Of a DNA stretch of 64,000 nucleotides, positions 383 to 62,200 are shown piece after piece. The notes beneath the pieces are model-generated. The model had not been told where the DNA came from. It was given only the letters and a program-made list of their open reading frames with translations, and did not search any database. The DNA comes from Owenia fusiformis (Eukaryota). The translations under genes and the position numbers were made by a program. Location: contig CAIIXF020000001.1 of assembly GCA_903813345.2 (NCBI GenBank), forward strand, positions 2,418,001-2,482,000, in the 5' to 3' direction. How positions within the stretch are numbered: the first letter of the stretch is position 1; every line of letters starts with the position of its first letter.

Positions 383-3300
383 AGGCCATGCAGCCTACGG
401 GACTGCCGTAGACCTGAAAACAAATGACACCCAAATAAACAGCACAAATTCAAGTACAACTTCCATAGGAGCAACATATTTCATGACCTACCACAGTATA
501 CTGAAAAACTCAACAGACTATATAGAGGCATTGAAATATGCTAGGAAGATCTCAGATAACATAACAGCTAGTATATTAGCTGAAAGACACAACAATATTC
601 CTCCAGGGGAACCAGGCCATTATTCTAATATGAGTGTTACTGATAAAACATACAAGGTGTTTCCTTACAGGTGAGTACTTACTTTCTTACAATATACAGA
701 GTGGGCCAAAAATAACCACCCAAGAAAAACTTAGGGACTCAATTGTTTGTAGCTAATATTTAAGTAATATAGACAGAAGAGCCGGGGTGATATTGTCAAA
801 TACACCCCGCAGGCAGGGCTAGTCACAAACGTTTTCTGTACCCTAATGACCGAAGGGAGTGAGGTGTTCGAAAACTTTTGTGCCTAGCCCTAAGGGGTGT
901 ATTCGACAATATTACCCCTGATCTTAGGTCTATATTACGATTCGAACATGAAAACTCACCAAAATGTTTCGAATATTCATTATGGTTCCCAACTTCGACG
1001 ACCCGCTGTTATGACGTCACACATTACACGTATTACCAGGGGTATTCTTCGCGAATATACCCTGGGTGAAATGTTGACTTTGTTTACAGTTTATAGAAGG
1101 CGTGAATACAGTCATGTTCGAATGTTGTTTATATCATATCCCTGTCAGAATGCTCTTATTTGGTGCTTTGCTTAATGATCTTCAGAACTTTTTCGCTTGT
1201 AATTTCATGGGAGTTGAATAAGAGGGTCTACAAATGGGTTGGAACTGATTCCAACTGAGTTTCCTCTTGATTTGCTCTCATTTTAACATGATAAATAACC
1301 CAAATGTTCACAAAATAAATTAGTAACAGTCATGTTTTATAATGTGATATATTTAAATAATTTTTGTATTTTATTTCCAGTATCTTCTATGTATTCTATG
1401 AGCAGTACCTTACCATTGTACATGAGACCATAATCAACTTGAGTACATGTATTGGCTCCATCTTTGCCATCTCATTCATCTGCCTGGGCTTAGATAGGTA
1501 TTCAGCAATAATCATCACCTTTGTGATTGGTATGATACTGTTGTCTATGTTTGGCTTGATGTTCCTGTGGAATATCTCTCTGAATGCGATATCACTCGTC
1601 AACTTGGTCATGGTGAGTTGATGATGTTTATTTGTTAAACATTATATTAGAAATAGGATGTTATTCTTATATCGAAATTGATTTGAAAGCAGATTATTTA
1701 AAGTGGAATAAAGTTACTTGAAGATACGAAGTGTGATTTACAGAATTAAATCCTTTGCAAAGGGCTGTGCAAAAGTCAGTCCATCCCAGTGAACAGATAG
1801 TACTACAAATATCAAATATTGATGTTAGGACATAGGGTTTTCAAAGATATTGTAACAGTCTATATTATATTATGTCAAAACTGTACCAGGAATGATTTTA
1901 TTTTTTCAAATGCTATATATCTGTTTTTTGCAGTGTGTTGGTATATCAGTCGAGTTCTGTTCACATATAGTTCGAGCATTTGCGATCAGTGTGCATGAAA
2001 CACGAGTGCTTAGAGCTAAACATTCACTGGCTCACATGGGAAGTTCAGTAAGTACTACCTGATTCTTCTGTTCAATTATCAAATCCTGGCAAAAAAATTT
2101 CAAATCTTTTGACATGTTATCAAAATATCCAAGAGAGAAAACCAGATCATAAATAAGAATTCTTAATGGTTGTTACAAAGGTCAAAGTAAGGGAGAATAA
2201 GAATTCTTAATGGTTGTTACAAAGGTCAAAGTAAGGGAACATGAAACATTTATTGAATTCATAACTATACAAAGTTTCTGTTAAAACCGATATTTTTTTC
2301 AGGTGCTAAGTGGTATTACATTAACTAAACTAGGTGGTATAATTGTGCTTGGGTTCGCACATAGTCAACTCTTCAAAGTGTTTTACTTCCGAATGTACTT
2401 AGGAATTGTACTGTTTGGAGCTACGCATGGCCTTATATTCCTACCAGTATTATTAAGTTTCATAGGTGAGTTTTATAAATTATAATGTTATTGTTTTCCA
2501 GTTTGGCTTTCATAACGTGTATTTCAGTAATAGTAAGTGTACATTTGAATTAAAACTATTTCCCATAAGATTTACAATATGATAACAATATGTCTTTATC
2601 ACTATTATGTACATATATTTATATGATTTTAATAAATAAAAAAAAGATTGTGACATGAATTTCATGCTTTTGGGAGTAAAAGTAAAGTTTCTGTGATAGC
2701 AAACTAAACAACATTTGTCCATGTAGCTTCTAATTGCTTATAAGGTGCTAAGAACAGGCGTTGAGTACATGTGTTTGGTGATTGTACAAATGTACATAAC
2801 ATAACACATGGTACTGTCTGGATGTCTTTGAATATAGAATCAAAAACTTAATATCTGTAAATCTGTGTCCTCGATATGCTCCTAGTTGCTTCAGTTATTT
2901 TACTATTCTTTGTAGTGACACTAAATGATGTAATAATAGGCATAGCTAATTATGAGTGAACTGCCTCTCAAGCATATTTAGACTAAAACTGAAAATTATA
3001 TCCCACAGATCTATGATATTCTCTACTTTGACATTCATTTTGTCTTTTCTATTATTAAATTTTGCCTCACCTATTTTAGTTCTTTTGGTCGTTGGATACT
3101 GACTGACTGCGCTCTTGAACTGACTGCGCTCTTGAACTGACTGCGCTCTTGAACTGACTGCGCTCTTGAACTGACTGCGCTCTTGAACTGACTGCGCTCT
3201 TGAACTGACTGCGCTCTTGAACTGACTGCGCTCTTGAACTGACTGCGCTCTTGAACTGACTGCGCTCTTGAACTGACTGCGCTCTTGAACTGACTGCGCT

Positions 3301-4646
3301 CTTGAACTGACTGCGCTCTTGAACTGACTGCGCTCTTGAACTGACTGCGCTCTTGAACTGACTGCACTCTTGAACTGACTGCGCTCTTGAACTGACTACA
3401 CTCTTGAACTGACTGCGCTCTCGAATTGACTACGCTCTTGAACTGACTACACTCTTGAACTGACTGCGCTCTTGAACTGACTACATTCTTGAACTGACTG
3501 CGCTCTTGAACTGACTACACTCTTGAACTGACTAAGCTCCTGCTAAATGGATGCATGAACAATCGATGACCATGCTCTGACTGTGCATTATTTAGTTTTT
3601 CATCAATGTTCATTCTATTATGGAAATATGTTTGTTAAATGTTAGCCTTTAATATGCTGTTTGCTAATGCCTTGGTCACATTTGCTTCGATTTTCACTAC
3701 GGCGCCCAGCTGATTGAGTATTTTGTTCAAAATTGAATACAATATTGAGCAAAACACTCAATCAGCCAGGTGCCGGCCGATGGATCGGAGCAAATGTGAC
3801 CCAGGCATTAATGGGAGCCTTTATTATGTTGCAGGTCCTCCTATAAATAAAGCCAGATTGTATCAAGCCCAAAATAAATATTCCAGGCTAGAGTATGTCA
3901 TATATCGAGTTAACATCTGAATATCTGCATTTTTGTTTTCTGCTTAGTTCTGCATACCTTATATAACATGTATAATGTTGTGTTTGGATTTATGCACCAA
4001 ATGATGCTTTTAGGCACCAAATGCTGTTTTTCTCTTACTTGAACATTTGCCTTGATCTGTGACAAGTGGACTGTTTTGTAATTATCATTCAATTTTAATA
4101 TTAACTTTTACATTAATATTTATTCTTTGGTCACTTGGTAACTACTAATTGATACTAATTCAATGAGCCTGATAAAGGCAATGATGGGTATTACTAATTC
4201 TTTAATTAATAATGATGGGCATACATACATGTATTATTCTTTCCCTAATGTAGTGCAACTTTCTCCAGCATAAACCTGCAAGCTTTTCGACATCACATTC
4301 TCTGACTTGAACCTTCCATGTTAACATATTTATCTTCTGATCTGAATAAACGGTATGAATTATAGTTTAATACTAGTGTGTAGAAATCAAATGACTTTAA
4401 AAGAGATATGCGATTTTAAACAAAAACATAGGCTACAATAACATTAATATACGCTCTTCATATCAGAGCATATTTAATAATGCATTTTCTTTTCCACTTG
4501 CAGGGCCTCCGATTAACAAAGCAAGGCTATTTGAGGCTTATCAGAAAAATTCCAACAAACATAGAGTGTCGTCAACAGAAGAAAGAGAAGCCTTACTCAA
4601 GAGTGCTATCAACAGTGATAGTGCAAAAAGATATGAGGCTATATGA
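383..4646 (+). CDS. NPC1: NPC1 (Niemann-Pick C1 lysosomal cholesterol transporter), 3' part. Exons 383-670, 1381-1612, 1934-2047, 2303-2465, terminal exon B 4504-4646 (alternative terminal exon A 3835-3920)
   Basis: Spliced translation GHAAYGTAV...[12 protein letters not shown]...[17 protein letters not shown]...[29 protein letters not shown]...[67 protein letters not shown] matches the NPC1 C-terminus. All introns are GT-AG with consistent phases. The tail has the dileucine motif EREALL. A likely polyA signal AATAAA at 7567-7572 is followed by a GT-rich tract. Confidence 0.96.
3103..3537. repeat. 17-bp minisatellite (TGACTGCGCTCTTGAAC) x about 25
   Basis: Perfect tandem copies that degenerate toward the 3' end. 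It explains the spurious 17-aa-periodic ORF at 3071-3367. Confidence 0.97.
3665..3810. mobile_element. Palindromic MITE, PIF/Harbinger-like (TAA/TTA ends)
   Basis: taatgccttggtcacatttgc ... gcaaatgtgacccaggcatta; the interior is also self-complementary (ctgattgagt...actcaatcag). Confidence 0.75.
3835..3920 (+). CDS. NPC1: NPC1 alternative terminal exon A ([28 protein letters not shown])
   Basis: Acceptor ttgcag at 3829-3834, in the phase that matches the donor after 2465. It encodes the same GPPINKARL start as exon B, using different synonymous codons. AATAAA at 4345-4350 lies between exons A and B. Confidence 0.75.
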
Positions 4647-5479
4647 GAAAATATTGAAACTAGAAAATCAAAAAACAGACTCTTATGTGCAAGGACTGGT
4701 TCAACTTCACTTGTGAAATTTAAGAGCTGATGACCAAACTTTCATCAGGGACTGAAAACTGAAATTAAAACTTCATATTGGGTAAGATATAACTCAGATG
4801 TTTCACTGATCTGAAATGGAATCAATGAAATGGACAAATGCTGGAAGTGATATTCCCAGATTGATTTGTATCATGCCGAAGGGATTGTGTAATACTAGCT
4901 ATGACAAACATTGGTCAGGGATCAAGTGAAGATCATTTCATGATTTACGGGCAACAGTTCTGTAAACAGGGATGAGTGCACTCACCACAATGAAGTGTAC
5001 AATACTAGAGAACAATTTCAGTACTACAAACCATGGTACAATACTAAAGTACAATATCATTGTTCTAATAATGGTAGACTACAGTGCCAGAGAACAATAC
5101 CTCTGTACTAACTACACTGTAGAGTGTAGACTACAATACAAGAGTACAATATTAGAGCACAATACTTGGGTACAATACCAATATCATGTTGGCCTAACAG
5201 CATTGATAATCAAAATGTTTTCAAGTTACAGGAATGGATATGTATCAAAAGTTTTATGACAATTGAAGTAGTAGACGTATAGGGAATGTTGAGAAATATC
5301 TCTCAACCACCTGCTGTAATGTGGTATTTGTACTCCCCATCTTGGCTGTCCACTCCAAAGGAATACTGTTATATTCTGAAGAAAGAATTCAACATTCTTA
5401 GATATTTCATATTAACCTTTTTGTTAATACAATACACAAATATCTTGATCAAAAGCTGTTTTTATTAGTATACTTAAGG

Positions 5480-5648
5480 AATAAAAACCGAGATTTTATG
5501 ATTTATGGCGTAATATATAACCGAAAATTTAATTCTGTTCATTGTTAAAAGACCGAAATCGCGTAGCGATTGAGGTCTTTGGCAATGGCCAGAGTAAAGT
5601 TTGAGGTCATATATTTGATGTAAATCATAAAATCGAGGTCTTTGTTAC
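5480..5648. repeat. Imperfect hairpin element in the NPC1 3' UTR
   Basis: gattttatgattta...aaagaccgaaatcgc-gta-gcgattgaggtcttt...taaatcataaaatc. Confidence 0.7.
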
Positions 5649-7635
5649 GATTCTAATATGATAAACTGTGAAGAAACAAAACTATTTGCATTAATGAATT
5701 TTAGTGGTCATACATACTCCAATACTGACCAGTAAATCAATTGTTCTAGCTATTGTGACGTCACGTGTCATATTAGAATCATATAGAATGCCAAAGATTT
5801 TGTTATTCTTCAAACATTAAATTGTCTGATTATGTTATTGACTCTCTATAAAAGATGATTAATATATTATTAATATATAATATACAATTTACGATGTGGT
5901 CAATGGGAAAGAGGTAAATTGCTTCATAATGGAATTATGCAAACTCCTAGCTCAGATATTAAAGAAATTAAGGCAATTGGACTAGAAGTATTGAGAGTTT
6001 TGCATTCAATGCAATGCGATGATCATAACCTCAGAAGGAAAGCTGGAACGTGCCATGTGAGTCTCAGCCAACATGTTTACAATCATAAACTGATAGCTAT
6101 TAGGAGCATGGGCTTTCAAGAGTCTGTTGAAAGCCCATGTTAGGAGCCACCATTTGTTCTCAGATGATGATTATATAAACGATGTTGAACCACATGGCCA
6201 TTTTCTACATTCCTCAAAGACCATATTGATAAGTCTGAGATCCAAATGGTAGCTGTATAATTATGTACTTGTATATATAGGCCTGCTGTACCATTGATCA
6301 TTCTAATTAAAAGTTGTATTTATTGTGTTTTAAATGGCTGACTAGTAATATGTATATTCCATTGACTGTGTTGGAAATTTTATTGTTTTGGCACAATACA
6401 CAACAATCTCAGTAGCAGTTTGTTCAGTCATTGTACCTCCTTCATTCTCTCTTCAAGATGTTTAATTTATTTATAATTTTGACCATATTCATTTATGTCG
6501 TTCCTGACACTAAATGTCATTAAATCAAAGTTAAATCAAATGTTCAGATATGTGTCACAAATTGAGAGTAAGCGATTTCATCTCAAGTTCAAGTGAGTTG
6601 AATCATTTTCCAGTAAGACTGAGTTTCCTTGGGATAAATGTCCATAGAAAGAGGTATCTGAGAGAATGTACTGAACAAACTGCTATCCAGATATGAATGC
6701 ACAACTCAGGATTCCACTGTTGCTATTAGATTGACACTATTTATTTGAACAGTAACACTCTCAAGTTACTACACTTAGGTTTTACAAACCATTTTTCAGG
6801 CCTTGCAAAATACATATTATTAAAGGATGGGAAAATACTCTTTGAAGAAATCTTGATTTAAAATGTATTATTTAACTTTTAGTTTGTTTTTTTTTATAAA
6901 AAATGTAAATATTTAAAACCTTGAAAAAACAGGATTACAAAATGCTAAACATGTGAAATCTCCAGTAAGATACAGAGCTGTTAATTTTGTGTTAAGAGTG
7001 ACTATGATATGTTAAATATCCTTTTCACATGAACATTTATCATTTTTACATGTAAATCAAACTCAAATCAGAAAAGTATATATTCCTCTATGGAAAGCGA
7101 AGGGAGAATTCCAACTTAGTATTTCTCTTGTTCTATGAAATTGTACATGTAATTCAATTACTCATTGTACATGTGTATGTTATGCTCCCTAAGATATCAT
7201 TTATTCAAACTGTTTTAGTGATATTTTAATTTTGCTGTATTGTAAGGGGGTTGATTTTCACTATACCGATAAGGGGATACAAATATCTTGGTTAGCATAA
7301 TAATAAGCCACTTGTGATCCAACCAATCAATTCATAGGTCATTATATCTGAATATGCACCGAGTACCAAAACCAAGACTGTTATTCGCTTCATGTAGTCG
7401 ATGAGTGCTTGTATGCCATCTTAAATTCTATTAGAAGTATAAATTATATTTAGAAGCTGGTTATTGCCTGGGTCAATCACTGTTTATGTAAGCATCGTTT
7501 TCTTTACAAAAATGTAAATATGATTTCAATTTAGTATTTTTGTAACATATGAATTGTTTTAATAAGAATAAATGTGGATTGGAAAATTAATTCTGTGTGT
7601 GTGTTTTTAAGTCTACTAGAGGTCCTATATTTAGA

Positions 7636-8005
7636 GGTTATGTCACTATCGTGGCATATATGCCCGAGGTCTCAGTGATGGCCCGACCTTGGGAGGGACA
7701 TTGATCTCTGAGAACCGAGGGCATATGTGCCACGATAGTGACATAAGCGATTTATAACATACCTAATATGATGATGTAGACTGGTCAGAGAGTACCGTTT
7801 TTTATAGAATTGACAAACAAATGGTTTGAAAATGATTGAAATGAGTAAAGAAAAATTGCTCGCGCAGTTTTATCTTGGATTGATTGGTTATGACGTCAGC
7901 GCCTTGACCAATCAGAAAGTTAGCGGGCGCAGGCTTTTCACAACTTATATTGGCCCGCTGTCTTGTGTTCACTTTACACTATACATCATCATAGGTATGT
8001 TATAA
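7636..8005. mobile_element. Interspersed element made of a hairpin plus an inner inverted repeat (related copy at 43231-43327)
   Basis: ttatgtcactatcgtggcatata...tatgtgccacgatagtgacataa hairpin, followed by ttataacatacct...aggtatgttataa arms. The same tatgtcacta...tagtgacata stem recurs near 43.2 kb. Confidence 0.6.
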
Positions 8006-8009
8006 TTAA

Positions 8010-10878
8010 ACATTTGGTATGTGAATTTGACAAATTGGTATGGGAACATAATGATATCAGCAGAAGGTTCAGCCTAAGACCCCCGCCAAATTTTGTACAC
8101 AGTGAACCCCCTGGGTGCGGATGTTCTAGACATCAGAGACAACAGAGCTCTCGTAGAATTGGAAGGGTTTCCCAACCAGTACTCCTGGGAGGATTTGACT
8201 GCCAACTGGCGCAATTTTTTAAAGAAACAGGTAATTATAAAACATCAAAAAACACAATACTAAACACTAATACAAGAATCAATGTTATGTCAAATCACCC
8301 CCCCCCCATTCCTTAACTTATACTAATACCAGAACAAATGTTCACCCCTGTCCCCCCATCAGCTGACATATGTATTTATATGAAACATGAAAGTTCAACC
8401 CATGAATACTAGTATGAGACACAAGAAACGGTTCATCTGATTCTCCCAATGTAATGTACCTTTCATGCTGATGCTATGAAATATTCACTCCCCCCCCCCC
8501 TTAATAGGTTGTTCTAATAGCATTGGTGTTACACACAGTACGCCAGTGCGTACCAAATGAATTGGAAAAAAATCAAAAATGTGTTAAAAATGCATTAATT
8601 TGTTTGCACATTTATTGATTATTCTGTATTTGTAGATTCAACTATTAAGTTTTATCAGAAAAGAACTATTTAAAGTTGATAAAAACGCTCAAATTGCATC
8701 AAATAATGTCTTTACAAAGACATTTCCCGGGGAGCATACCCCTGGATGCCCCAAGATGTGTGGCCTTTGGCCACGCGATCCACACATCCACAACTGGGCG
8801 TACCAACTCAAAATGTAGCCCTACGCCCATGAATAGGGGAATTTAAGGCAAAGATCATTACTAATATGGTACAATTATAAACAAATTCAAGTATAAGCTG
8901 TATATTATTATGTCACCACCAAAAGTGGTGACATATTGTTATGGTCTCCGTTTTTTTATGTCACCACCAAAAGTGGTGACATATTGTTATGGTCTCCGTT
9001 TTTTTTGCGACGGCGTCTGGCGGTTGGAGGTTGGCGTCCGGCGGTTGGCGTCCGGCGGTTGGCGTCCGGCGTCTGTAACAATTTCTTACAACTTCCTATA
9101 ACTTAACAAATACTGTTTAGACTGACTTCAATTTTTTTCTAAATCATCTACATGTTCTCAGAAGTTCAAATCTGACTTTAGATTTGACATTTGACCTTCA
9201 ATGACCTTCTCAAGGTCAAAAAGGTCTTTTTTCAACTTGCTTCACATTGACAATTTTTTTTTTCAAAATCATCTACATGTTCTCAGAAATTCAAATCTGA
9301 CTTTAGATTTGACTTTAGATTTGACCTTCACATCTGACTTTAGATTTGACATTTGACCTTCAATGACCTTCTCAAGGTCAAAAAAGGTCAAAAAGGTCTA
9401 TTTTCAACTTGCTTCAAATTGACTAAATTTTGTTTTCAAAATCATCTACGTGTTCTCAGAAATTCAAATCTGACTTAAGATTTGACATTTGACCTTCAAT
9501 GACCTTCTCAAGGTCAAAAAAGGTCAAAAAGGTATTTTTTCATCTTGCTTCCAATTGAAAAAAAAATTTTTTCAAAATCATCTACATGTTCTCAGAAATT
9601 CAAATCTGACTTTAGATTTGACATTTGACCTTCAATGACTTTCTCAATGTCAAAAAAGGTCAAAAAGGTATTTTTTCATCTTGCTTCAAATTGACTAAAT
9701 TTTTTTTTCAAAATCATCTACATGTTCTCAGAAATTCAAATATGACTTTAGATTTGACTTTAGATTTGACATTTGACCTTCAATGACCTTCTCAAGGTCA
9801 AAAAAGGTCAAAAAGGTCTTTTTTCAACTTGCTTCAAATTGACTATTTTTTTTTCAAAATCATCTACATGTTCTCAGAAATTCAAATCTGACTTTAGATT
9901 TGACATTTGACCTTTAATGACCTTCTCAAGGTCAAAAAGGTCTGTTTTCAACTTGCTTCAAATTGACCAATTTTTTTTTTCAAAATCATCTACATCTTTT
10001 CAGCAGTTCAAATTTGACTTTACAAGTTCTCAGAAGTTCAAATCTGACTTTAGATTTGACCTTTGACCTTCAATGATCTTCTCAAGGTCAAAAAGGTCTT
10101 TTTTTAACTTGCTTCAGATTGAACAATTTCTTTTTTCAAAATCATCTACAAGATCCCAGAAGTTCAAATCTTCAAAAACCTTCTTAAGGTCAAAAGGTAT
10201 TTTCCAACTTGCTTTAAATTGACCAAATTGTTTTAGGTGGTGACATTTTGTCATGTTAATGCCTTGTTCATCCAATGTAAATGCATTATTTTATTATTTA
10301 CAAGTCGTTGACACATATATACTTTCAATCTTATACATTCAGTCTGTCCATGATAAAGTATTTTAATGCAAATAAACATATAGCAGTTATGTATATATAT
10401 ATATTGCAGGAACATTCCTACAGCTCAACATGGGCAACAAAAGAACTGAGACAGAAGTCCAGCAACACCAGAGCATTGCCTCAAGATATATACAGGGTGG
10501 ACCACCCTGTACATATATAATTGGGATATTCGAGAGGGTTGAATATGACAACACATTGTGCCTCAGGTATTGTTCATATAGTATTCGTATGACTTAAACA
10601 TGTTATATGTATGTAAAACATGAAGGTCAGGATGCAAGAAGTATCAGAATATACTAGCCTAAGGATAACATTAAATAATCAGTCAATTATGAAAATAACC
10701 TTTCATGAATGAGTGAACTATCTCATAATGTACAATATTTAGTTTTTTATTTTCCAGATGCAATCATAATGGTCAAGGAGAGACCATGGCAATGCAATCC
10801 GGTAGGGGAGCTCCTCGTGCCTGGACCCACTCACATTTCCTTGACATTTGCTTTGACAAGAGGAAAGAACTGGAGTAA
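8010..10878 (+). pseudogene. Remnants of a spliced ORF with a chromodomain-like segment. Tentative exons about 8010-8230, 10410-10567, 10759-10878
   Basis: The frame starting at 8102 reads VNPLGADVLDIRDNRALVELEGFPNQYSWEDLTANWRNFLKKQ up to a CAG|gtaatt donor (phase 0). The acceptor ttgcag|10410 continues in phase 0 as EHSYSSTWATKELRQK. A further donor follows 10567 and an acceptor precedes 10759. The ORF is broken by a stop or frameshift and by a collapsed Tc1-type TIR footprint (tacagggtggaccaccctgta, about 10491-10511). Confidence 0.35.
8905..10268 (+). mobile_element. DINE-1/HINE-like (Helentron-associated) element with an internal tandem array of about 120-bp units
   Basis: Subterminal inverted repeats atgtcaccacc ... 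ggtggtgacat, a duplicated 48-bp head, a GGCGTCC-type microsatellite at 9010-9075, about 8 tandem units (aatctgactttagatttgacatttgaccttcaatgaccttctcaaggtcaaaa...), and a 3' end ending cttgtt. Confidence 0.7.
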
Positions 10879-21962: not shown

Positions 21963-23167
21963 TATTTACAGTCTGTTAACTGTTAAAAATAATAACAACA
22001 TAACTTCGACATATGAGTGTTACCTGATGAATGGGACCCTCACGTGCCTTCCAAATGGTAGTACACGAACTCTAGTGTAACTACATCAGCTTATCTTTCC
22101 GTCCGATCAACAATAAGTACAGTTATACAAGAAATGTAAACGAAGTGAAAATATTCCCAAAGATTTTCCGCCAACATAGGGACTCATTTTTAGGTAAAAT
22201 CCCTGATTCAACGATGAAAATTAACGAATAAAGTAGTTCCTGTTTACGGGACCATATTCTTGCCAACTTCAATGGTGTGTATAGTAGGTTTAAGTGTATG
22301 CACTATGGCCATTTGAGGTATGTATGTAAAGCTGAGGCCAAGTACTTTCTAAATGTGCCATTTTTAGAAAAAAATCTCAATTCATTTACTACTAGAATAT
22401 AGGACTACACTTATTTTATATGTCAGTTTTCAATTTAGTACATGTTTCATAATTGAATCTAATGTATTCATGCTAAATGTGTCAAATAAAGATGGCTTGA
22501 GGGGGTTCACTTTGGCAAATTTGGCCAAAAATCACACGAAAAGTGGTCAAAATGGTGAAAAAGTGCATGATTTTGAAAGAATTTTTGGCCATGGGGGGTT
22601 CACCTGAACCCCCTGGCTACGGGCCTGACATGTATATCAGTATAAATACTATGTAGATTAAGTTTGATCACTGTGCTAACTTTATTTAAATATGAATTGC
22701 ATGGTCTTCAGATCCATAATAATTCTATACATATGAGATATCTTACGTTCATATTTGAGAGCACATTCAAATTAAAGATCAATGTGTACATGTAAATTCA
22801 GGGATTATTTCCATTCTTCTATTCGAAACGAAATCAAATTTGTAATTATTGAGAATCTTCAAAAATCGATTCCTATTTTTATGTTTTTGTGAAATATTTA
22901 TTTTTCATCGGTCTGAGAAATAAAATTTGAGAGGCCTGTATGTACTTGGTGTACATGTAGCTATTCCACTGCTTCTTTATGCATAATTGTGGCAAAGATC
23001 CTTCATCAAAGATTCTTTCTTTTGTCTCGATCACAACTTTTAACACATTCTCCGAAAAGTTTGACTCAATGTCATGGAAGAATATTTCTGAAGTATTCCT
23101 AGAAAAGATTTTGATTTTTAGTTATATATTGTTCTAATAACTCTGATTAACTTTTCAGGCCATCAGC

Positions 23168-25135
23168 ATGACTGATTGTGTTGATGTCCAAAATAAACCA
23201 ACTGAAACAGTTGAAGACTCGATGGCCATCTGTCCTCCAGATTCTGAGCAGTTAGAACAGAACATTGAAGAAAAGACTACATTGATTGAAGTGAAATGTG
23301 AACAACCTGAGTATGATGAACATACGGAAGAGTCCCTAAATACAGTCACTGTGTACCAGCCGGATGTCTGGCAACAAAAGGTTACGCCACCTCCAAGAGC
23401 AGCCAAGAGGAAAGCAAGAGACAAATGCAAAAAGATAGCTGTAGATGATTCAGGTATAGATGTCTCTGATCGTACTTTCAGTGTGCGTTCAACATGTAGA
23501 AGAAAGCATAAAACATACTATTGTGAACATTGTACATATGCAATTGGAAAACATGATCTCATGCAAAGTCATTATAGAACGGAACACCCAAAATTGGCCA
23601 AAATGCACAAATGTACATATAAGGGATGTGATTATTCATGTAACTGTCGCAAGTCCATCCAAGCTCATATATTAGCTATACATAAGAACGTCAAGTTCAG
23701 GTGTACACACCCTGATTGTACATTTGAGACAAACAGCAGAACTAAACTGAGGTATCATACCAAATCTCAACATTTAGCTGTGGAGGAATTTAAACCTTGG
23801 AAGTGTGATGAATGCGAGTTAAGATTTTGCCATGTTTATGATTTGAATAGACATCATTATGTACGCCACATGCCGGAGAAGCCATACTCCTGCGATGAAA
23901 AAGACTGCAATTACAAATGTAAATCAACTTGGGAATTGAAAAGTCACAAGTCACAAAGTCACAGTGATATTAGACCATATAAGTGTGGACAATGCGGATT
24001 ACGTACCAAGGTTCTTTCAGATCTTCGAAAACACATGATAAGACATTTGAATGTTCGAGAACACCAATGTGGTATTTGTGATAAGAAATTTATTTGTGCA
24101 GCAGATGCTAAACGACATAGGGATGATATACATAGTGATTTACAAATAAAATGTGAATACTGCCCCTATATTGCCAAATCAAGAGCCAAATTTAGAAAAC
24201 ATTTAGAAAAACATGGTTCAAGGTGGTTCAGTTGTGCTCACTGTTCTCAGAAGTATCATTCAAAATCTTCTCTCAAACAGCACATAAGAACACATGATCC
24301 GGATCGTCCCTTTCCTTGTCCCATCTGCGAGGAATACGTAGCAACTTCTGTATTCACATTAGTTGTTCACATTGGAAAACTTCATAAAGATTATCGGTAC
24401 CTGTATGAGTGCATTGTCTGTAGGAGATCTTATAACAAAAGTTGCCAACTGAGGCAACATTTTGAAACTGATTTACACAAGATGACTAAAGCAGCTGATC
24501 CCGCACTAAAGGATGAACCAGATGATCTGTATAAAGGACTCATGGAAAAGCTTTACTCAGTCAATGGAGTAAAGAAAACTACTAAGAAAAAAGAGAAATA
24601 CAAATGGGCAGACAACTTAAAGGGCCCTCGTCCCAAAATCAGTCCTAAGTCAAATGATTTAGTCAATGGTACATCCAAGGCGATACCTAAGAAACCTCCC
24701 AGCCGCAAGAGGAAAACATGTGAGAAGGCTACAAAATCCAGAAAAGGAAATACTCGCAATAAAAAGAGAAAGGGACAAATGTCTAATGAAAAAAAAGATT
24801 CTCATGTAGGAACTGTTAAGGAAGAATGTGAAGATACACCTATACATGATGAAAGCAAAAGAAAGCGGAAATCCAATAACTGTTATGCAACTGCAACTGA
24901 GAGCACTTGTGAAAATACTGATCAAATGGATGTACTCTCAAATGGTCACGAGAGCCATCCGACAGAATCAAGTGAAAAATTATTATCTGATTTTGTGAGC
25001 AACGCAGATGTAGGAACTCTTGAGAATGTGGTTGTTAAGATTGAGAAAGATGATGGTGAACAGGAAATGTATGGTTTCCAAGTTTTACCAAGTGAAACAC
25101 TGGAGCAAAGAGAGATAGACCCTTTAATGACATAG
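23168..25135 (+). CDS. C2H2 zinc-finger protein (655 aa, about 11 fingers, basic low-complexity C-terminus)
   Basis: Intact ORF with repeated CxxC/CxxxxC...HxxxH/HxxxxH fingers and EKPY/IRPY/DRPF-type linkers. An acceptor ttttcag at 23152-23158 lies just before the ATG. A probable non-coding upstream exon ends at 22317 (gag|gtatgt). Confidence 0.93.
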   Translation: MTDCVDVQNKPTETVEDSMAICPPDSEQLEQNIEEKTTLIEVKCEQPEYDEHTEESLNTVTVYQPDVWQQKVTPPPRAAKRKARDKCKKIAVDDSGIDVSDRTFSVRSTCRRKHKTYYCEHCTYAIGKHDLMQSHYRTEHPKLAKMHKCTYKGCDYSCNCRKSIQAHILAIHKNVKFRCTHPDCTFETNSRTKLRYHTKSQHLAVEEFKPWKCDECELRFCHVYDLNRHHYVRHMPEKPYSCDEKDCNYKCKSTWELKSHKSQSHSDIRPYKCGQCGLRTKVLSDLRKHMIRHLNVREHQCGICDKKFICAADAKRHRDDIHSDLQIKCEYCPYIAKSRAKFRKHLEKHGSRWFSCAHCSQKYHSKSSLKQHIRTHDPDRPFPCPICEEYVATSVFTLVVHIGKLHKDYRYLYECIVCRRSYNKSCQLRQHFETDLHKMTKAADPALKDEPDDLYKGLMEKLYSVNGVKKTTKKKEKYKWADNLKGPRPKISPKSNDLVNGTSKAIPKKPPSRKRKTCEKATKSRKGNTRNKKRKGQMSNEKKDSHVGTVKEECEDTPIHDESKRKRKSNNCYATATESTCENTDQMDVLSNGHESHPTESSEKLLSDFVSNADVGTLENVVVKIEKDDGEQEMYGFQVLPSETLEQREIDPLMT

Positions 25136-32306: not shown

Positions 32307-46908
<14,602 letters not shown>

Positions 46909-53200: not shown

Positions 53201-56200
53201 GAGAAGGAGCATCAACTTAATCAATCAGAAATTTGGGAAAATAAATGTGGGAATATTTGAGAGAACAGGAAAATCCGCCCACGGCCGAGAAAACAAAACT
53301 GGACATGAATATTCTAAAATATTTCCACAATTGAACAATGTGAACCAGATGACCAAGATTGGTATGGGATAAACATATTATCCTATAGTCGGTTCAGGAT
53401 ATTGGGATTATCCCTTGGCCAATATAATATATTTTCCCTCGGGACCTGCGGCCCTCGGGCAAATATATTATATTTGCCTCGGGATAATCCCAATATCCTG
53501 AACCTCATATAGGATAATCTCTATATATCCAAACAGCTCTCTCATCTGAATACCTCTTTTTTAATTGGCTGTATATTTCCATGTTAAAATAACGCGAACA
53601 CCTGTTAATTCAAACAGTTTTTGCCACAGTGGCCCAATGGTGGCCCAATGGTGCTAGACAGGTCTACTGCACTTATAGCACATTGAAGCTGTTGTCAAGC
53701 CAAACATTATTCCAAGCATATCCATCCTTTTTAAAGCAACATATTTTTTCTTCAGGATATTGGGATAATGGCAACCACATGGGACATGTATGACACCTAT
53801 AAACTTGCTGAGGAACTAGAAAAGGGTAGGTGAACATCTGATTGTTTTACAAAGGTAGAAAAGACAGATGAATGGACAAGTAGGCGATTCCATAAGCACA
53901 TAGATTATAATTTGTTCCTTTAATTTACACTGACACTACCTGCAATGCTAAAGGTCATTGGTAGGCGGTACTTTCTCTAATTTTCACTATCAGTATTTCT
54001 TGGAGTTAGCATTGACCTCTACCCAGATTTACGAATGTGGACAATTCAAGGATGCTTTTCTGGAGAAAAAAGTACAATGTACATGCATTATGAGCATATA
54101 GACGTTTTCCAATATTTGATTAATGTTCTTCAATGCAACGATTACAGCCAAAGAAAAGGAAGCAGAAGATGAGGAGAATGAAGAAGAGGGTGAACCAAAG
54201 GAAGAAAAAACAGATGAAGAGAAAAAAGATGACAGTGCTTCACAAAAAGAGGGTACTGGTATTACAAAACAAGGCACACAAATCAGTATCATGAAATCAG
54301 GCTTAGGTATGTATCATATATATACATATATTTTTGCACTTTCCAGTTTTTGGTGTCTATACAACAGTAATTTAATTTTCACAAATTCACACCAGCCACA
54401 CAAGTATTTCCAAAGCTACAAACATTTAGTGTGGTATGTCAGTTTACAAAGTGATTTCCAAATGTAAAAGAGTAGCGGTTGATAACAAGGCAGTGATTCA
54501 AATTAAGAGAGAATTTGAATTTAAATAAAGAATTGTGAGAATTATGTATTGATTATATATTTTCTGGTGTTTAATAATGGACTCAATCACAAACATAATA
54601 TATTTGCTTTTTCTTTGTAAATATTAAGTTTCAAACTTTTTTTATTATAATTGGATACGTTTTGCCAAATAATAACTCTGTTACTCCTCAATCTAATTAA
54701 TATCATGTTTGTATGTCTATAAGAATTATCTTGGTATATTTTCAATGAATCTTCAGTTTTCATTGAGTTTGAACATGGCCTTTGATATATTGCCATTCTT
54801 CAAGTCCTTGAATGCATCATCAAAGCCATCAAGGCTGTAGACCTTGACCCCTAGCTTTTCATAATCCAGGTAGCGTTCCCCCATAGCAGCTACTAATGGG
54901 ACTGCCTTAATGAAGGTATAGGGGTTGATCAGGGAACCTACGATTCTTAGCTCCTTCATCATGATATCAGCAGGGCAGATGTTAGCCTTAGACCCACTAG
55001 GGCAGCATCCAAAAGTACACAATGTAGCACCTCTACAAAGTAAGGGAAATATGGCCTCAATAGCTCGGGGAGACCCTGTACAATCCATGATTAAATCAAA
55101 CCCATGAACTGCTGTGTCTACGTCTTTGTACTGTGTTGCTAAGATGTCTGGTGTAAGCACTTTCAAATTGAGCCCAAGGTTCTTTGCAAGTTTTCTTCTC
55201 CCATCAGTCGGTTCAGAAAGAGTGATATTTCTGTAGCCTTTGTGGTGAAGCAGAGAGGCCCAGAGGAGTCCAATCATACCAGCGCCAGTTATGAGTATCT
55301 TGGCATCATCAAGTAATGGCTGAATCATGTCCCATCCACGTTGGAGGCAGGACATTGGCTCACATAGGGCACTGGTAGCAAGACTCAAATCTGCTGGGAG
55401 GGAAAACACCTGGGCTACAGGGACCACACAATACTCTGCCCACCCTCCATTCTGGAACATTCCAATTGCTGACCTACCACCCCCTGTTGGGCAGTAATTA
55501 GGCTGGCCTTTGAGACAGAATGCACATTTCATACAGGAGCTGTTTGGATCAACTGCAACATTATCTCCAATTTTGAATCCAGTCACCTCTCCTCCAATAT
55601 TCTCTACAGTTCCAGTAAACTCATGCCCCATGACAACTTTTTCAGCTGCTGGAAACTCTTGTTTCATAACATGGAGATCAGTCCCACATACGCCACTGTA
55701 AGCCACCTTGATGAGCAGTTGGTCTGGCTTGGTAATCTGGGGTTTCTCCAGTGAGACCAGTTTCACTGACCCTCTGCTAGCATCCCAGTGGAGAGCCTGC
55801 ATTTCTGAAATGCAGAAATAAACAAATAGGTGAAAATCGCTTATTTTGTGAAAATCTTCTTTTTATTGGAAAACTTGAGAGAACAGATCTTAGAATCCAA
55901 GAATGGGGAGACTATATTCCCATCCTTCGTCAAATATTGTTGTTTAAAAAAAAACAAGTATGATTGAATAACAGGATTTTAAACAGAATTTTTTGTCAGT
56001 ATAAATGAGTTCATTGCTTTTTACCTAATATCATGAGTTATATTGGTTGCAAATCTGCTTTTACTCCACAGTTACTGACATTCATAGGTAAGGATATCAT
56101 GTCAAAATAATTTTTCTGTAACCAGTGTAAAGATAGATATACCATTTGGCAAATTTTCACTTAACCATGAGATACAGCATCATATCCATTACAGATTCTT

Positions 56201-59200
56201 ACTACTTGACTCGAAATGAGGCTGATAGGAATCAGTCAGTTTGGAAAATTTAATTTGAATCATTTAAACACTCTTTAACTACTGTATTGAATAGAAAGAA
56301 CATCTTATGATTTACTCATGGTATGATTTTTATCCACTTCTTGATATTAATTTTCTTAACATACTCATTCAGCATTCTTGTAAAGATATCATATCCATTT
56401 GCCATAAGAATCATATCTCTAACAAAACAGACAAAAATCATATCACTGATAAATCAAAGGATTTCCTCTTGATATAAATCATAGGATCCTAGGATATCAT
56501 CTAGATCTTCATATTCAATGTATTTTGTGTATACTAACTTGAAAATTGAGGTTGTCCTGTAGAGTTTGAATTGATAGACTAGTCCCATGCAGTACAGGAG
56601 AGAAAGGGGAGTGTTATCACCAAATTGTTATTATTATGTATGTATGTAACAAATTAGATCACTGGACTCCTTGAACTGATAGTACTCCAATGAATGGTTT
56701 ATCATTAACTTGATAGTTCAAGGCTAAATCCCTATTCATCAAATTCATTATGGTAATGCTACCGTAAGGTGAATTGCATTAATTTTTCGCCAGAGGTAGG
56801 AACAACTGAAGCCTTGTGAATTAAGATGTTTTTCACATCATCCTGAAAAGTTGCCATTGCAAATACACACTTATCAGCAATGCTCATTGTGCCTATATAA
56901 ACATGAAATAACTGGAAACATTAATTATGTGATTCCATATATTTATTCAGTCAACTTACCTCAATTCAAGACTGGACTCTTTGGATTTCTTAATTCCCAC
57001 ATTATGAAAAATATAATGAAGAGAGATGACAATGATGAATCTTACTTGTATTGTAATTTTCAATATTTGAAGACTTATGTGTTGATATGAGCTTTGGTTT
57101 CAGTTTCAGTTTCAATAATCATAATGTACAGAATATGTGAAGGGGTCAAGGGCAGAGTACCAAAATGACACTTATTCCTGACAAAAGATGAAAAGAAACA
57201 TGTTTTCCATAAATCCTGCATGGACTCTATGTTTATGTTGATTAAAACAAAAGTTATTTGAAAATCTTTGTAATTCAAATATTTTGTTTATTTAAAACTT
57301 ATGAAAACATATGGGACAATAGTATAAAACAGATAAGATATGCTGACCACTTCTAACTTGAATTGCATTTCAGTTTTCTTTATGCAATGCAAATACAAAT
57401 AATAAGTAAATAAATAAGATATGTTTTTTTTCACAATTTATTCACAGTAAAACCTGTATAAGTGGAACACATTTGGTACTTCTAAAAAAGTGATTGATTT
57501 GGCAGGTTACCCAGGTTACTTTAACATTGAGTCAATAACACAAATGCGAGTACTTATTATTGTATTTCTTTTCAATGATGTTCATATGTGTATTACAGAG
57601 AGTCAAGGAACTATGATGTCTACTGCTAGTAGTATATTTGGTAGCAAAGAATCTGGAGTCAGTGCAGTTTCTGATGTACAATCAACTGGAAAAGATGATA
57701 TTCTAAAGGTAAACAAACATTGACCAACATGTTGCACCATATTTTTGACCATGTTTCCTCGAAGAACCTCATTTATGAAAATCAGTCCGGGTTCTTACCA
57801 GGCCATAATACACAGAAGCAACTATTTTCTATTGTTTATATGTTAGCCGATAATTTTGACTCTAACCTAGCAACCCGTGGAATATTTTTAGACGTGGAAG
57901 GTGCATTTGACGCAGTCCCACATTTTTTGTTACTCCATAAGATGAAATCTTATGGATTAGGCAACAATATTATAGAGTTATTGACCTCATATCTAACAGA
58001 TAGGAAATTAAAAGTAAGGATCAATGATACTTATTCAGACATTTCATGTAATGCTGAAACTGGTGCAAATATTCCTCAAAATCTTCAAAATCGAGACTCT
58101 AGATCCTATGAAATAAATAGTGGGGTTCCCCAAGGATCAATTCTTGGCCCCCTATTATTTTTGTTATATATTAATGACTTAGCAGACTCAGTTCATAATT
58201 GTAAACTTTTCTTATATGCTGATGATAGTTTGATCTTCTTGACAGTACCAAAGAATGAATCAGTTGAAACAACAAATCAAAAAATTCAATCAGATATCAA
58301 TGAAATGGCTAATTGGTCCACTAAATGGAAACTCAAATTTAAGGCATCTAAGAGTAAGGAGGTTATCTTTCAATCTAAACACACACGAAAAGTTAAGAAA
58401 CAAATTCCAGTAACAATGAATAATGAGCAAATACCTCTTGTAAATAGCCATAAACATTTAGGCATCATTTTAGACAAACACCTTAGCTTTGAAGAACACA
58501 TTAACTCAGTGATTACTAGGTGTAATAAAATGTTAAATCCATTAAAAGCACTCAAATTTTCAGTAAGATCAAAACACTTACAGACAATTTACATGGCATT
58601 CATTCTCCCACATCTCGAATATGGCAATATTATTTTTGACAGCGCAAATCTAAACCTCTTAGCAAGTTTAGATAGAGTCCAATATAGAGCGGGTCTTATT
58701 GTAAGTGGTTGCATCCAAGGGTCAAACTCTGAGAAGGTGATGGCATGTCTTGGATGGAGATCCTTATCCAATCGAAGAAAAGAAAAAAAACTAGTTTTTA
58801 TGTTTGACTTTGTAAATAATTATAAGATGCCTTCATATGTTTCAAATGTTTTTGAACAGTATAAGAATCAGGTAACCCACCAAAGACTTCGTCGTAGCAA
58901 TGATTTTAAGATCCCATTCAAAGCATCTGCTAAACTTAGAAAGTTTACAGCTTTATCCAGTATTAAATTATGGGATAATTTACCTGATGAACTGAAACAA
59001 GCACACTCACGCAACTCATTTAAGTATAAAATTAGAACATTTTTGAATGGGAAAAAGAAAGAATTCACAACCCCAAGATTAAACCTATCCAGAGATAAAG
59101 AAATTGTCTTAAATAAAACGAGATGTGATCTCATTTTTAGGCAGCATCTTTTTACACATAACTTCAAAAATATTCCAAATGCCAAATGTAAATGTGGTCA

Positions 59201-62200
59201 CTCTACTGAATCAACCAAACACCTATTGCTCCATTGCCCTCTTTTTAACACTCAAAGACTCAATTTTCACAGAGAACTAGGGGGACTGCCATCCTTTAAT
59301 TTAAACTCTTTTAATAATAGAAAACAGGAGGACAGGGTAGACTTTTTACTTTTTGCAGATCCTTCTCTTGACACAATTACAAATAAAAAGGCTATTGAAT
59401 TAACAGCCGAGTTTTTACACTCTATTGTCAAGGAAGTTAAATAGTCCAATATTCATTAATTTATACATATATCTCTGACCTGTCTTCATGTTTTCAAGAT
59501 TATTTTCATGTTCATAAATATGTTCTATATCTATCATTTTTACATTATGACCTATTTTAACTTATATTGTAACTACTTCAACAGGGCCAATAATGCTTCG
59601 GCGTAGGCCCTGTATCTGTTTGTATGATGTATTATGAAATAAAGGAAATATAAAAATTTAAAAAAACATGTTGCACCCAGGCTGGTTGAAGTTTCCAATT
59701 TTCAGACATGCTTGCATTTTTTACCTTATTTCTAAGAACTGGGCCAAAACTTGACCATCTTGACTAAATAGTTTATTGAAATTTGTCTTTTTTGACCAAA
59801 AATCTCATTTTCAAGAAATTGTTGAATTCCTTTTGAGAACCTATCCTGGGTCTGTGTACTATCCACCAATTATGCTATACTCCTGCTCATGCACATTTAA
59901 AGTGTTTAACCCAGTTAAGGCACATAACTGATACCATTAAGAAATGTGATGATCCATTGTCTCTTTCTGAATTATGCATTTTTAATATTTTATCAGATTT
60001 ACATTAAATAGACCTTTAAATTAAAAATGAACCTTTAAGTTGTTCCATGGATTTCATTTGTAAATTGTAATACTGTTATTTTACTATACATGTACTTGTA
60101 TATATTTTACTTTTAGTCTGATAGTTTGCGTAAAGATCTGTTCGTCATGGAGCGTGTGGTGAATAATAACACATACCAACCTAAACAAGCCTGCTACAGG
60201 GGCTTTGACATAATACCAGGTATACTGTTTTAATATTCTTCAGCAGAAGGGGCAATTTCATATTAATCTGATCGAGCAAGTTAACTTTACAAAAATATTT
60301 CATTTTGAAACAGTGAAGAATACACTGGTTTGCCAATTGTACATGTCACCCCTAATATCACTGATTCTGCCTTTAAAGTTCATAAACATCATAATAACTT
60401 TCCTGCAAAATGAATTCGTCTTTCAATGTTTTTAACTTTAAAAAGTAGGCTTTTAACCTTCTCCTAAAATAGAATTAACGGTCAAACATAATCAAGACTT
60501 GTAATACTAATACTATTAGTGTCTGAACTCTGAATGGAGTTCTTGAATACATAATAGCATATGTATAATACAATTAGTATTCACATGTACAAAAACATGA
60601 ATTGATTGCAGACATTGACAAAGTGACAAAGGAAGACACAATGCTTGGGGCACTGGAGGAGATGGGGCCCAACTTAGACAGACTTTGGTCATTCTCATGT
60701 CCACTTACAAAGGGAAGGAATGTTAGCTGCATGTCTTGGAACAGAGCAAATCCTGTAAGTTAATGTTCAGTTGTTTATCATGGAATACACAGTCAATGTG
60801 CAACAAATATGGCACCATTTGAGCTACAGTATCATACAGTACAATGATATCGGAGTGGTGATTGAGGGTGAAAGGGAATAACAGGATAATTTTATTCAGC
60901 AAAAGATATGAACATTTAAATCATATTTGCAACATTATAAAGTAAGAAAAAAGAAAATATTCAAGGATATAATAACAACAAATGCCAAAGAGCTGTAACT
61001 TTTGCTATGTTTGCTGTAACAGCAATAATAGATACTACATAATAGATACTATTGATGTTTACTTTTCAGGACTTAGTTGCAATAGGGTACAGTCAGTTTG
61101 AGTTTACCAATCAGAAAGGAGGCTTAATATGCTGCTGGTCTTTGAAAAATCCAGAGGTAAGTTGAAATGAAGTTTGATGTTCATTGTTGTTCAAATAAAG
61201 AATGATTGAATTGTACCACATAAACCTTTTTAATGAACAGAAGTACTGAAAGGATAAGGGTGGTTTTACTGAACATTTTATTTATCTCCAACATCAGTGA
61301 GTGGATTAATTTCTAAACTGTACATTTCAGTATCCAGAGCGTATCTACACTTGTAGTTCTGGGGTGACTGCCATGGACTTCTCCACTGCACATGCAAATC
61401 TGCTGGCTGTAAGTACCATTTTTTTTATGTACATTATCCCTCATCAAATTTTATATCATTTGCAATGTGATTTCCACGGAAAGTGGTGCAAGTTTCATGA
61501 ACAACAGAGAAAAATCTAGATTGTGTCAGATCAGCAGAGATATTTTTTAAAGATTATAACTTTGAAAAAAGTAACTAATGTTCCAATACATTTTTGATGT
61601 GGGTCAACCTGAAATATAATTGAAGGGGATAACAGTGGGTTTCTGGCCTGATCCCTTTACCAACTAAATGTATAGTATAAATGACATATTAGGAAATCTC
61701 AAGACATGGGAAGTAGCCTGTTTTACTTACTCTGAATATCCAACAAGTGTATATTACATCATTTTGTAGGTTGGATTGTATGATGGCACAGTAGCAGTGT
61801 ATAATGTTCGCAATACAATCAATGCCCCCATCCTTGATAGCCTGTAAGTATGAACTGTAATTTTGTAAAGAAGGCTTTTAAATATTCAGGATTATCAGGG
61901 GTATCCAGTCAGGATTCATTGTTGATGAATACTTGTAAATATTTCTGTAGGAGGGAATTGTCATTAAAATTCGGCTTAAAATCAACCATTGTATTTCTGC
62001 TCTACCTTCCAACAACATTAGAAAAAATATTTGATAAAGGATGACATGAGATAAAAAGTTGAGACTAATAAATTGTAAAATGTTTCTCCCTATCACTTTC
62101 ATGAATGCAAATACAATTTTATAATAAGAAATATCTCGATTCAAAATTAAAACGAATGAGCTTATAGGTTGCTTAGGTTATACTGTATAACATACTGATG

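Follow-up and report, generated by a model that had tools for sequence, protein, structure and literature searches.

Duplicated tail exons, one of them a frameshifting cassette, in tandem NPC1 genes of Owenia fusiformis

Background

NPC1 is treated as a lysosomal protein, and uptake at the cell surface is left to the separate genes NPC1L1 and NPC1b. The window analyzed here, a 64,000-nucleotide stretch of the Owenia fusiformis genome (contig CAIIXF020000001.1, positions 2,418,001 to 2,482,000), opens inside the 3' part of an NPC1 gene in which two exons, A and B, can each lead into the tail of the protein. An earlier note on this DNA took the two for alternative last exons, chosen by splicing or polyadenylation, that would give isoforms with different sorting signals from one gene. 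The question raised by the locus is which transcripts are made from A and B, from which gene copy, and whether the resulting proteins would differ in location. A tail switch, if true, would give invertebrates two NPC1 locations from one gene.

Two exons that open the NPC1 tail

When the genome was searched with exon A, a second copy turned up 36.5 kb upstream; it belongs to a tandem NPC1 gene that we call U, and the copy in the window is called W. The following parts of W lie in the window (positions count from its first letter), exons 18 to 20 being placed by tblastn with homologs, GT-AG boundaries and an open frame:

383..670, plus strand: coding exon 18 of the 21 mapped
1381..1612, plus strand: coding exon 19
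1934..2047, plus strand: coding exon 20
2303..2465, plus strand: exon 21, the last transmembrane exon, equal to human NPC1 1199-1251, with a phase-1 donor (GT at 2466)
3102..3533, no strand: 17-bp tandem array of 25.4 copies in the intron 3' of exon 21, with no counterpart in the U intron
3665..3810, no strand: MITE-like insertion with 27-nt inverted ends, stopping 24 nt 5' of the A acceptor and absent in U (gap in the W/U alignment)
3835..3892, plus strand: exon A, a 58-nt internal cassette that duplicates the start of B, with YSRL at 3879-3890 and the donor GTATGT at 3893; joined from 3892 to 4504
4504..4646, plus strand: coding part of exon B, the true last exon, with EREALL at 4581-4598 and YEAI at 4632-4643; covered by RNA

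In each of the two copies the 21 exons correspond to residues 19-1298 of Lingula NPC1 with no stop, the signal-peptide exon lying outside the mapped part, and the N-terminal, middle and C-terminal luminal domains and the sterol-sensing domain stand in one frame. Exon 21 of W scores 72.3 bits against human NPC1 and 43.9 bits against NPC1L1; exon 12 of U scores 41.5 bits against NPC1 and 35.3-35.6 bits against NPC1L1. Judged by sequence, W and U are NPC1-type rather than NPC1L1/NPC1b, and they group with lophotrochozoan sequences with a support of 99 (FastTree, midpoint root, no NPC1L1 sequence included).

That two phase-compatible exons both begin with GPPINKARL had been seen in the earlier note and stands: exon 21 ends in phase 1, the last letter of the acceptor AG is 3834 for A and 4503 for B, and the frame of exon 21 continues into either exon as GPPINKARL. 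The synonymous differences between them were also read correctly, six of the eight shared full codons differing and all of them synonymously, in a stretch picked because its residues match, which overstates the significance of the synonymy. Most homologs have this same motif at the start of the tail. The motifs assigned to the two exons are likewise found, with an acidic dileucine and a YxxPhi motif in B (EREALL and YEAI) and YSRL with no dileucine in A. The acidic dileucine belongs to the form of W that skips A and is missing from all tails that contain A.

The MITE-like element at 3665-3810 is 146 bp long, with nested inverted repeats and many genome matches to its end; it and the region ~7627-8005 are abundant repeats with many RNA reads running off both ends.

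Exon A is spliced as an internal cassette

We used raw-read runs (X17-X19, 6-12% of each read) and contigs (X1-X4). None of the runs listed is recorded as RNA; X1, X3 and X4 were taken as RNA from their spliced contigs, and X2 shows none. The first read mapping covered 3560-8300 at likeness 95 and the second 3812-4760 at likeness 90. Junctions with exon 21, which is separated from A by the intronic tandem array, were read from loose ends, whose letters are identical in W and U. The features that bear on the transcripts are:

3893..3920, plus strand: read-through extension of A, in minor or nascent RNA only and without raw reads; in U a stop is its second codon
4345..4350, plus strand: AATAAA, unsupported as a poly(A) signal, with no molecule ends listed there
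4514-4516, plus strand: stop in B in the reading frame that includes A
4647..7500 (end approximate), plus strand: long 3' UTR common to both isoforms; stranded X17-X19 coverage drops in bin 7376-7534

A GT..AG joint from 3892 to 4504 is present in four of four runs at likeness 95. It is carried by two, three and two reads in X17, X18 and X19 at this likeness (the X17 pair has a single start), and in X1 the contig with the A-B joint has a depth of 354 and the B contig a depth of 818. At likeness 90 the joint is listed in two of four runs, as a contig of depth 965 in X4 and as 17 reads from 15 starts in X18; in X3 it shows as a loose end, and X2, having no spliced contig, is without it. Letters of exon 21 hang over ahead of 3833 (A) in X3, X4 and 20 X18 reads, and ahead of 4502 (B) in X3, X4 and seven X18 reads, all at likeness 90. 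Both junctions that the earlier note had set against each other, 2465-3835 and 2465-4504, are thus represented, with exon-21 letters joined to 3835 and to 4504. The three junctions 21 to A, A to B and 21 to B are all present and the length of A is not a multiple of 3, so that A is a frameshifting cassette; as A is joined to B in RNA, the two are not mutually exclusive exons and exclude each other only as reading frames. The donor suspected at about 3893 is the one in use.

The raw depth in bin 3878-4036 is exactly the two, three and two reads of X17-X19 that end at 3892. No raw read extends beyond 3892 in any of the three raw runs, and the raw depth of X18 is zero from 3908 to 4483. The reads end at 3892 and join 4504, and A is therefore a 58-nt internal cassette. 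We hold this splice anatomy of A and B with high confidence.

A model in which A serves as an alternative last exon with polyadenylation near 4365 has to account for these same reads. An X4 contig does run from exon 21 through a W-type A into the intron, to 4229, and low intron contigs occur in X1-X4, as such an exon would predict; but the depth of the X4 contig, 23 versus 611 for skipping, is that of unspliced intron contigs (10-24). Nascent RNA explains it, and an ending in YVIYRVNI is at most a minor form. The AATAAA at 4345 exists as described, but in its supposed role it is at chance level (0.62 expected per shuffled intron, with a probability of 0.46 for at least one) and it is not conserved, U reading GATAAA; the extension of A, too, is closed by a stop in U. 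With A spliced on to B and the raw reads stopping at 3892, we consider a polyadenylated exon A very improbable.

Skipping of A gives a 47-residue tail with EREALL and YEAI, and inclusion shifts the frame and gives a 23-residue tail with YSRL only. By the established rule, a stop in the last exon does not expose an mRNA to junction-dependent decay; because the stop of the A-included form lies in the last exon, such decay of its mRNA is not expected. This weighs on the idea that A is a down-regulating switch, through which the mRNA for the short tail, or the protein made from it, would be degraded instead of serving elsewhere. The frameshift, the loss of two sorting motifs on inclusion and a 3' UTR of ~3 kb would fit such a switch, but besides the position of the stop, the abundance of A-containing transcripts (X4 depth 965) and the family's membrane-proximal motif retained in A make it improbable in our view.

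A tandem paralog that carries both exons

U is a complete gene at G000:C1 ~2343000 to 2387800, and its start lies 54 kb before the start of W. All 21 mapped exons have GT-AG boundaries (21/21) and the frame is open over 1285 codons. In a genome search with exon 21, only the W and U loci match among the five candidates scored, which makes two a lower bound. The two proteins are 88.7% identical, with a coding divergence of 6%, dS of 0.14 and dN/dS of 0.34. U carries both A and B, and the exon duplication is therefore older than the gene duplication. Exon A is 93% identical between W and U (54/58, two of the four differences being non-synonymous), compared with a coding average of 94%, 84% for the aligned intron and 21/29 for the extension of A. 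At this degree of conservation, A is a genuine exon duplicate and is constrained as coding sequence.

We considered whether U might be a divergent allele assembled in tandem, its differences from W being allelic. The runs are very polymorphic relative to the assembly, and U-type reads lack the indels that the assembly has in exon B, as might be expected of alleles; but a coding divergence of 6% with dS of 0.14, the presence of both types in X2, X3, X4 and X18 as well as in the assembly, and the order of W and U on one 62-Mb contig leave this explanation with very little probability.

U is transcribed, and its contigs are deeper than those of W in X3 and X4. Its branch is four times as long as that of W (0.11 versus 0.026, FastTree), and 28 of the 137 W/U differences are changes in U at a residue at least 90% conserved in 233 homologs, compared with one in W. 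Residues conserved in the sterol-sensing and late transmembrane parts are not kept by the assembled U, from which alone these changes were read. The residue equivalent to human Tyr634, which is Tyr in 232/232 homologs, is Cys in U and has a four-residue insertion beside it (L005:1880-2020), and the whole invariant GITLTK stretch is lost (L002:844-1021). We take the change at the Tyr634 equivalent to be linked to loss of function; a literature search on Y635C found no paper. All length changes in U are in-frame. From its sequence, U would be either repurposed or decaying.

Three more specific readings of U were rejected. It is not a broken pseudogene, since exon 21 reads in frame starting at L002:844 and no stop interrupts any of the mapped coding sequence. 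Decay of the exon B frame after A became constitutive is a feature of the assembly only, the X2 and X4 U-type contigs and the X18 reads being without those indels. A change at Asp786, which we take to be a sterol-sensing position, proved to be a change at the equivalent of Asp771 that is also found in 7/229 homologs.

The U locus has further peculiarities. At L005:4143-5918 (G000:C1:2362143-2363918), directly ahead of the intact exon 12, a 90-bp unit is repeated ~19 times in tandem; it combines the acceptor of exon 12 with the beginning of that exon, many units have an open frame, and they are possible decoy acceptors. A 1984-bp direct repeat in a U intron (L006:5574-7557 and L007:776-2759), 100% identical and with its copies 5.2 kb apart, may have arisen very recently by duplication or may be an artefact of assembly. 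The exon-2 region (L003:7695-9001 and L008:9379-L009:675) is 97% identical between W and U, and dS is 0.04 across the first 250 codons versus 0.14-0.19 elsewhere; this low divergence suggests gene conversion. A third, inverted part-copy of the exon-2 region lies in a U intron (L004:9080-9960, reverse).

Use of exon A is divided between the paralogs

The four letters that mark exon A of U are found on 23/27 and 19/22 X18 reads, and all four are on the deep contigs of X3 (580) and X4 (965), the latter running from exon 21 through A to B with U letters throughout. The contigs that skip from exon 21 to B in X3 (335) and X4 (611) carry no U letter, and an unspliced X2 contig ties the U-type letters of B to the U intron. 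Most exon-A reads derive from U, and because U letters are on the A-containing contigs and reads and on none of the skip contigs, with the linkage given by X2, nearly all U transcripts in these samples include A.

For W, inclusion by junction reads is ~2/15, 3/11 and 2/11 in the three raw runs (about 13-30%, with skip counts back-calculated from bin depth), and likely ~43% in X1, where the contig is attributed to W on the basis of the likeness threshold. The evidence for inclusion in W thus consists of seven raw reads and one contig (X1), and a W-type A-B contig is listed in neither X3 nor X4. W mostly skips A, with variation from sample to sample. We consider it probable that the use of A is divided between the paralogs in this way. 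The earlier view that both isoforms come from one gene holds in that W makes both, but it is incomplete, as U supplies most exon-A transcripts.

The donor of A is GTAAGT in U versus GTATGT in W. A consensus donor, together with an acceptor that has no MITE next to it, would account for the higher inclusion of A in U, and the pair would represent a partial separation of splice forms after gene duplication. Subfunctionalization, with one ancestral form retained by each copy, may describe the pair: inclusion of A is almost constant in U, but both forms come from W, and U is possibly in decay.

Alternative NPC1 tails in other species

We looked up 20 non-vertebrate homolog clusters, mostly chosen for having several members or isoform labels, and read tails from all or part of their members (7/15 of those listed for Anopheles, 8/15 for Cherax). 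Alternative tails within one species occur in ten of the 20: Lingula, Pecten, Haliotis asinina, Nasonia, Cephus, Temnothorax (one isoform drawn from a separate listing), Anopheles, Bacillus, Cherax and Nymphon (in one of six models). No tail variants were found in the other ten, two of which have a single member; Lineus has one tail. In ten of the 11 isoform pairs tested, the bodies are identical and the tails part at the NPC1 junction seen here. Both tails of Lingula, Pecten and Haliotis start with GPP-x-NKA, as in the window gene, and Nasonia and Cephus have three tails that resemble the skip, frameshifted-cassette and read-through forms. These isoforms are automated annotations, compared as proteins, and the tail switch may stem from either one old duplication or a repeated origin. 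A search with the exon B tail found no relatives, none of 18 candidates reaching E<=10.

Some clam NPC1 proteins are ~1820-1850 aa long, some 500 longer than usual (Mactra, Ruditapes, Mercenaria, Dreissena and one more; search hits P0086, P0131, P0194, P0204 and P0212), and three of these list an extra Pfam entry, PF27572.

The comparison across species also bears on whether exon A is a leftover duplicate that is tolerated in W as splicing noise, its high use in U reflecting a decaying paralog. The fourfold longer branch of U, its 28 changes at near-invariant residues, among them the equivalent of Tyr634 and the human 1201-1210 motif, the small number of W reads with A and the broken exon B frame of the assembled U are all consistent with such an origin. 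It is harder to reconcile with a shared eight-codon stretch in which every A/B change is synonymous, with an exon older than the gene duplication and as conserved as coding sequence, with inclusion in W of up to ~43% in X1, with an open U frame that has only in-frame length changes and gives contigs deeper than those of W in X3 and X4, and with similar tail pairs in three other lophotrochozoans. We therefore regard noise as unlikely.

Other features of the window

At 23147-25135 (plus strand) the sequence holds a single 662-aa frame with many C2H2-like zinc-finger motifs, and at 57699-59444 (plus strand) a 581-aa reverse-transcriptase-like frame of a non-LTR retroelement. An intronless 369-aa frame at 54753-55862 (minus strand), which presumably resembles a zinc-dependent medium-chain (sorbitol/arabitol-type) dehydrogenase, stands in an intron-rich genome and is possibly a retrocopy or an old horizontal transfer. 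The open frames at 32307-32996 and 41377-41844 (minus strand) may belong, as exons, to a single gene for a nuclear protein; we take the 41377 piece to resemble MIER-family N-termini.

Possible consequences for trafficking

YSRL can itself act as a lysosomal or endocytic signal, and we take it to be a tyrosine motif of the TGN38 type. The form that skips A would bind AP-1/2/3 via EREALL and act at the late endosome or lysosome. The A-included form would retain tyrosine-based endocytosis only, and may cycle via the surface, endosomes or TGN. Two papers describe the dileucine of the NPC1 tail as a lysosomal targeting signal that binds AP-1 (PMC13080411, PMC12057685), and one of them has NPC1 at the plasma membrane when adaptor handover fails (PMC12057685). 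According to the other, the sterol-sensing domain holds a further targeting signal (PMC13080411), and because of this signal, loss of the tail may not relocate NPC1.

Our preferred reading, in which we have moderate confidence, is that the cassette switches NPC1 between a tail with dileucine and tyrosine signals and a tail with YSRL only, the latter likely being lysosomal with less efficiency. For a real difference in trafficking between the two forms, which would follow from the motifs, we see about even chances. Given the 28 changes in U at residues with a conservation of 90% or more, its splicing may reflect relaxed selection. A larger scenario would have an old protostome NPC1 tail switch give rise, from the gene that also makes the lysosomal protein, to a non-lysosomal, surface-cycling sterol transporter; this form would now be undergoing fixation in U, whose sterol-sensing and transmembrane core would have been remodelled, as the birth of an NPC1L1/NPC1b-like paralog. 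We think this doubtful.

Comparison with known systems

Vertebrate NPC1 is of the same family and has the same exon position, and EREALL in B matches the ERERLL type of the vertebrate hits. The vertebrate tail is a single acidic-dileucine tail, whereas in this gene the dileucine can be lost through a duplicated cassette and B adds a terminal YEAI. Annotated isoforms with a similar arrangement occur in Lingula anatina (XP_013397956.1/957.1), Pecten maximus (XP_033726498.1/499.1) and Haliotis asinina (XP_067666139.1/140.1), each a pair with identical bodies in which GPP-x-NKA opens both tails at the same junction and one tail is shorter. Unlike B, these tails are without a strict [DE]xxxL[LI], and the likeness is one between proteins annotated automatically. 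Arthropod NPC1a (Nasonia, Cephus, Temnothorax, Anopheles, Bacillus, Cherax) has a similar tail switch, and the skip tail of Hymenoptera has LL and YAS[IV]; it differs in that the last exon is no longer cassette-like and in that read-through forms are annotated as regular isoforms. Our literature search, which covered few subscription journals, found no report of alternative NPC1 tails and none of this NPC1 gene duplication.

LAMP-2A/B/C is a lysosomal membrane protein whose sorting tail is swapped through duplicated exons. Those are alternative last exons that include the transmembrane helix, whereas the exon described here is a frameshifting internal cassette. NPC1L1 and insect NPC1b offer an analogy only, that of another member of the NPC1 family with a possible role outside lysosomes; W is far closer to NPC1 than to NPC1L1, and has U as its recent sister.

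A split use of homologous alternative exons between paralogs has been described (PMC4494069). Compared with the isoform separation in that account (PMC4494069), W and U each keep both exons, which do not exclude each other in splicing, and differ in how often A is included. The mechanisms brought together at this locus, a duplicated exon, a frameshifting cassette and isoform separation, are thus already known, and the isoforms themselves sit in public annotations. A second paper, PMC4417111, is said to deal with the separation of splice isoforms after gene duplication. To such cases the young W/U pair would add a small and testable one, that of a splice form becoming a separate gene.
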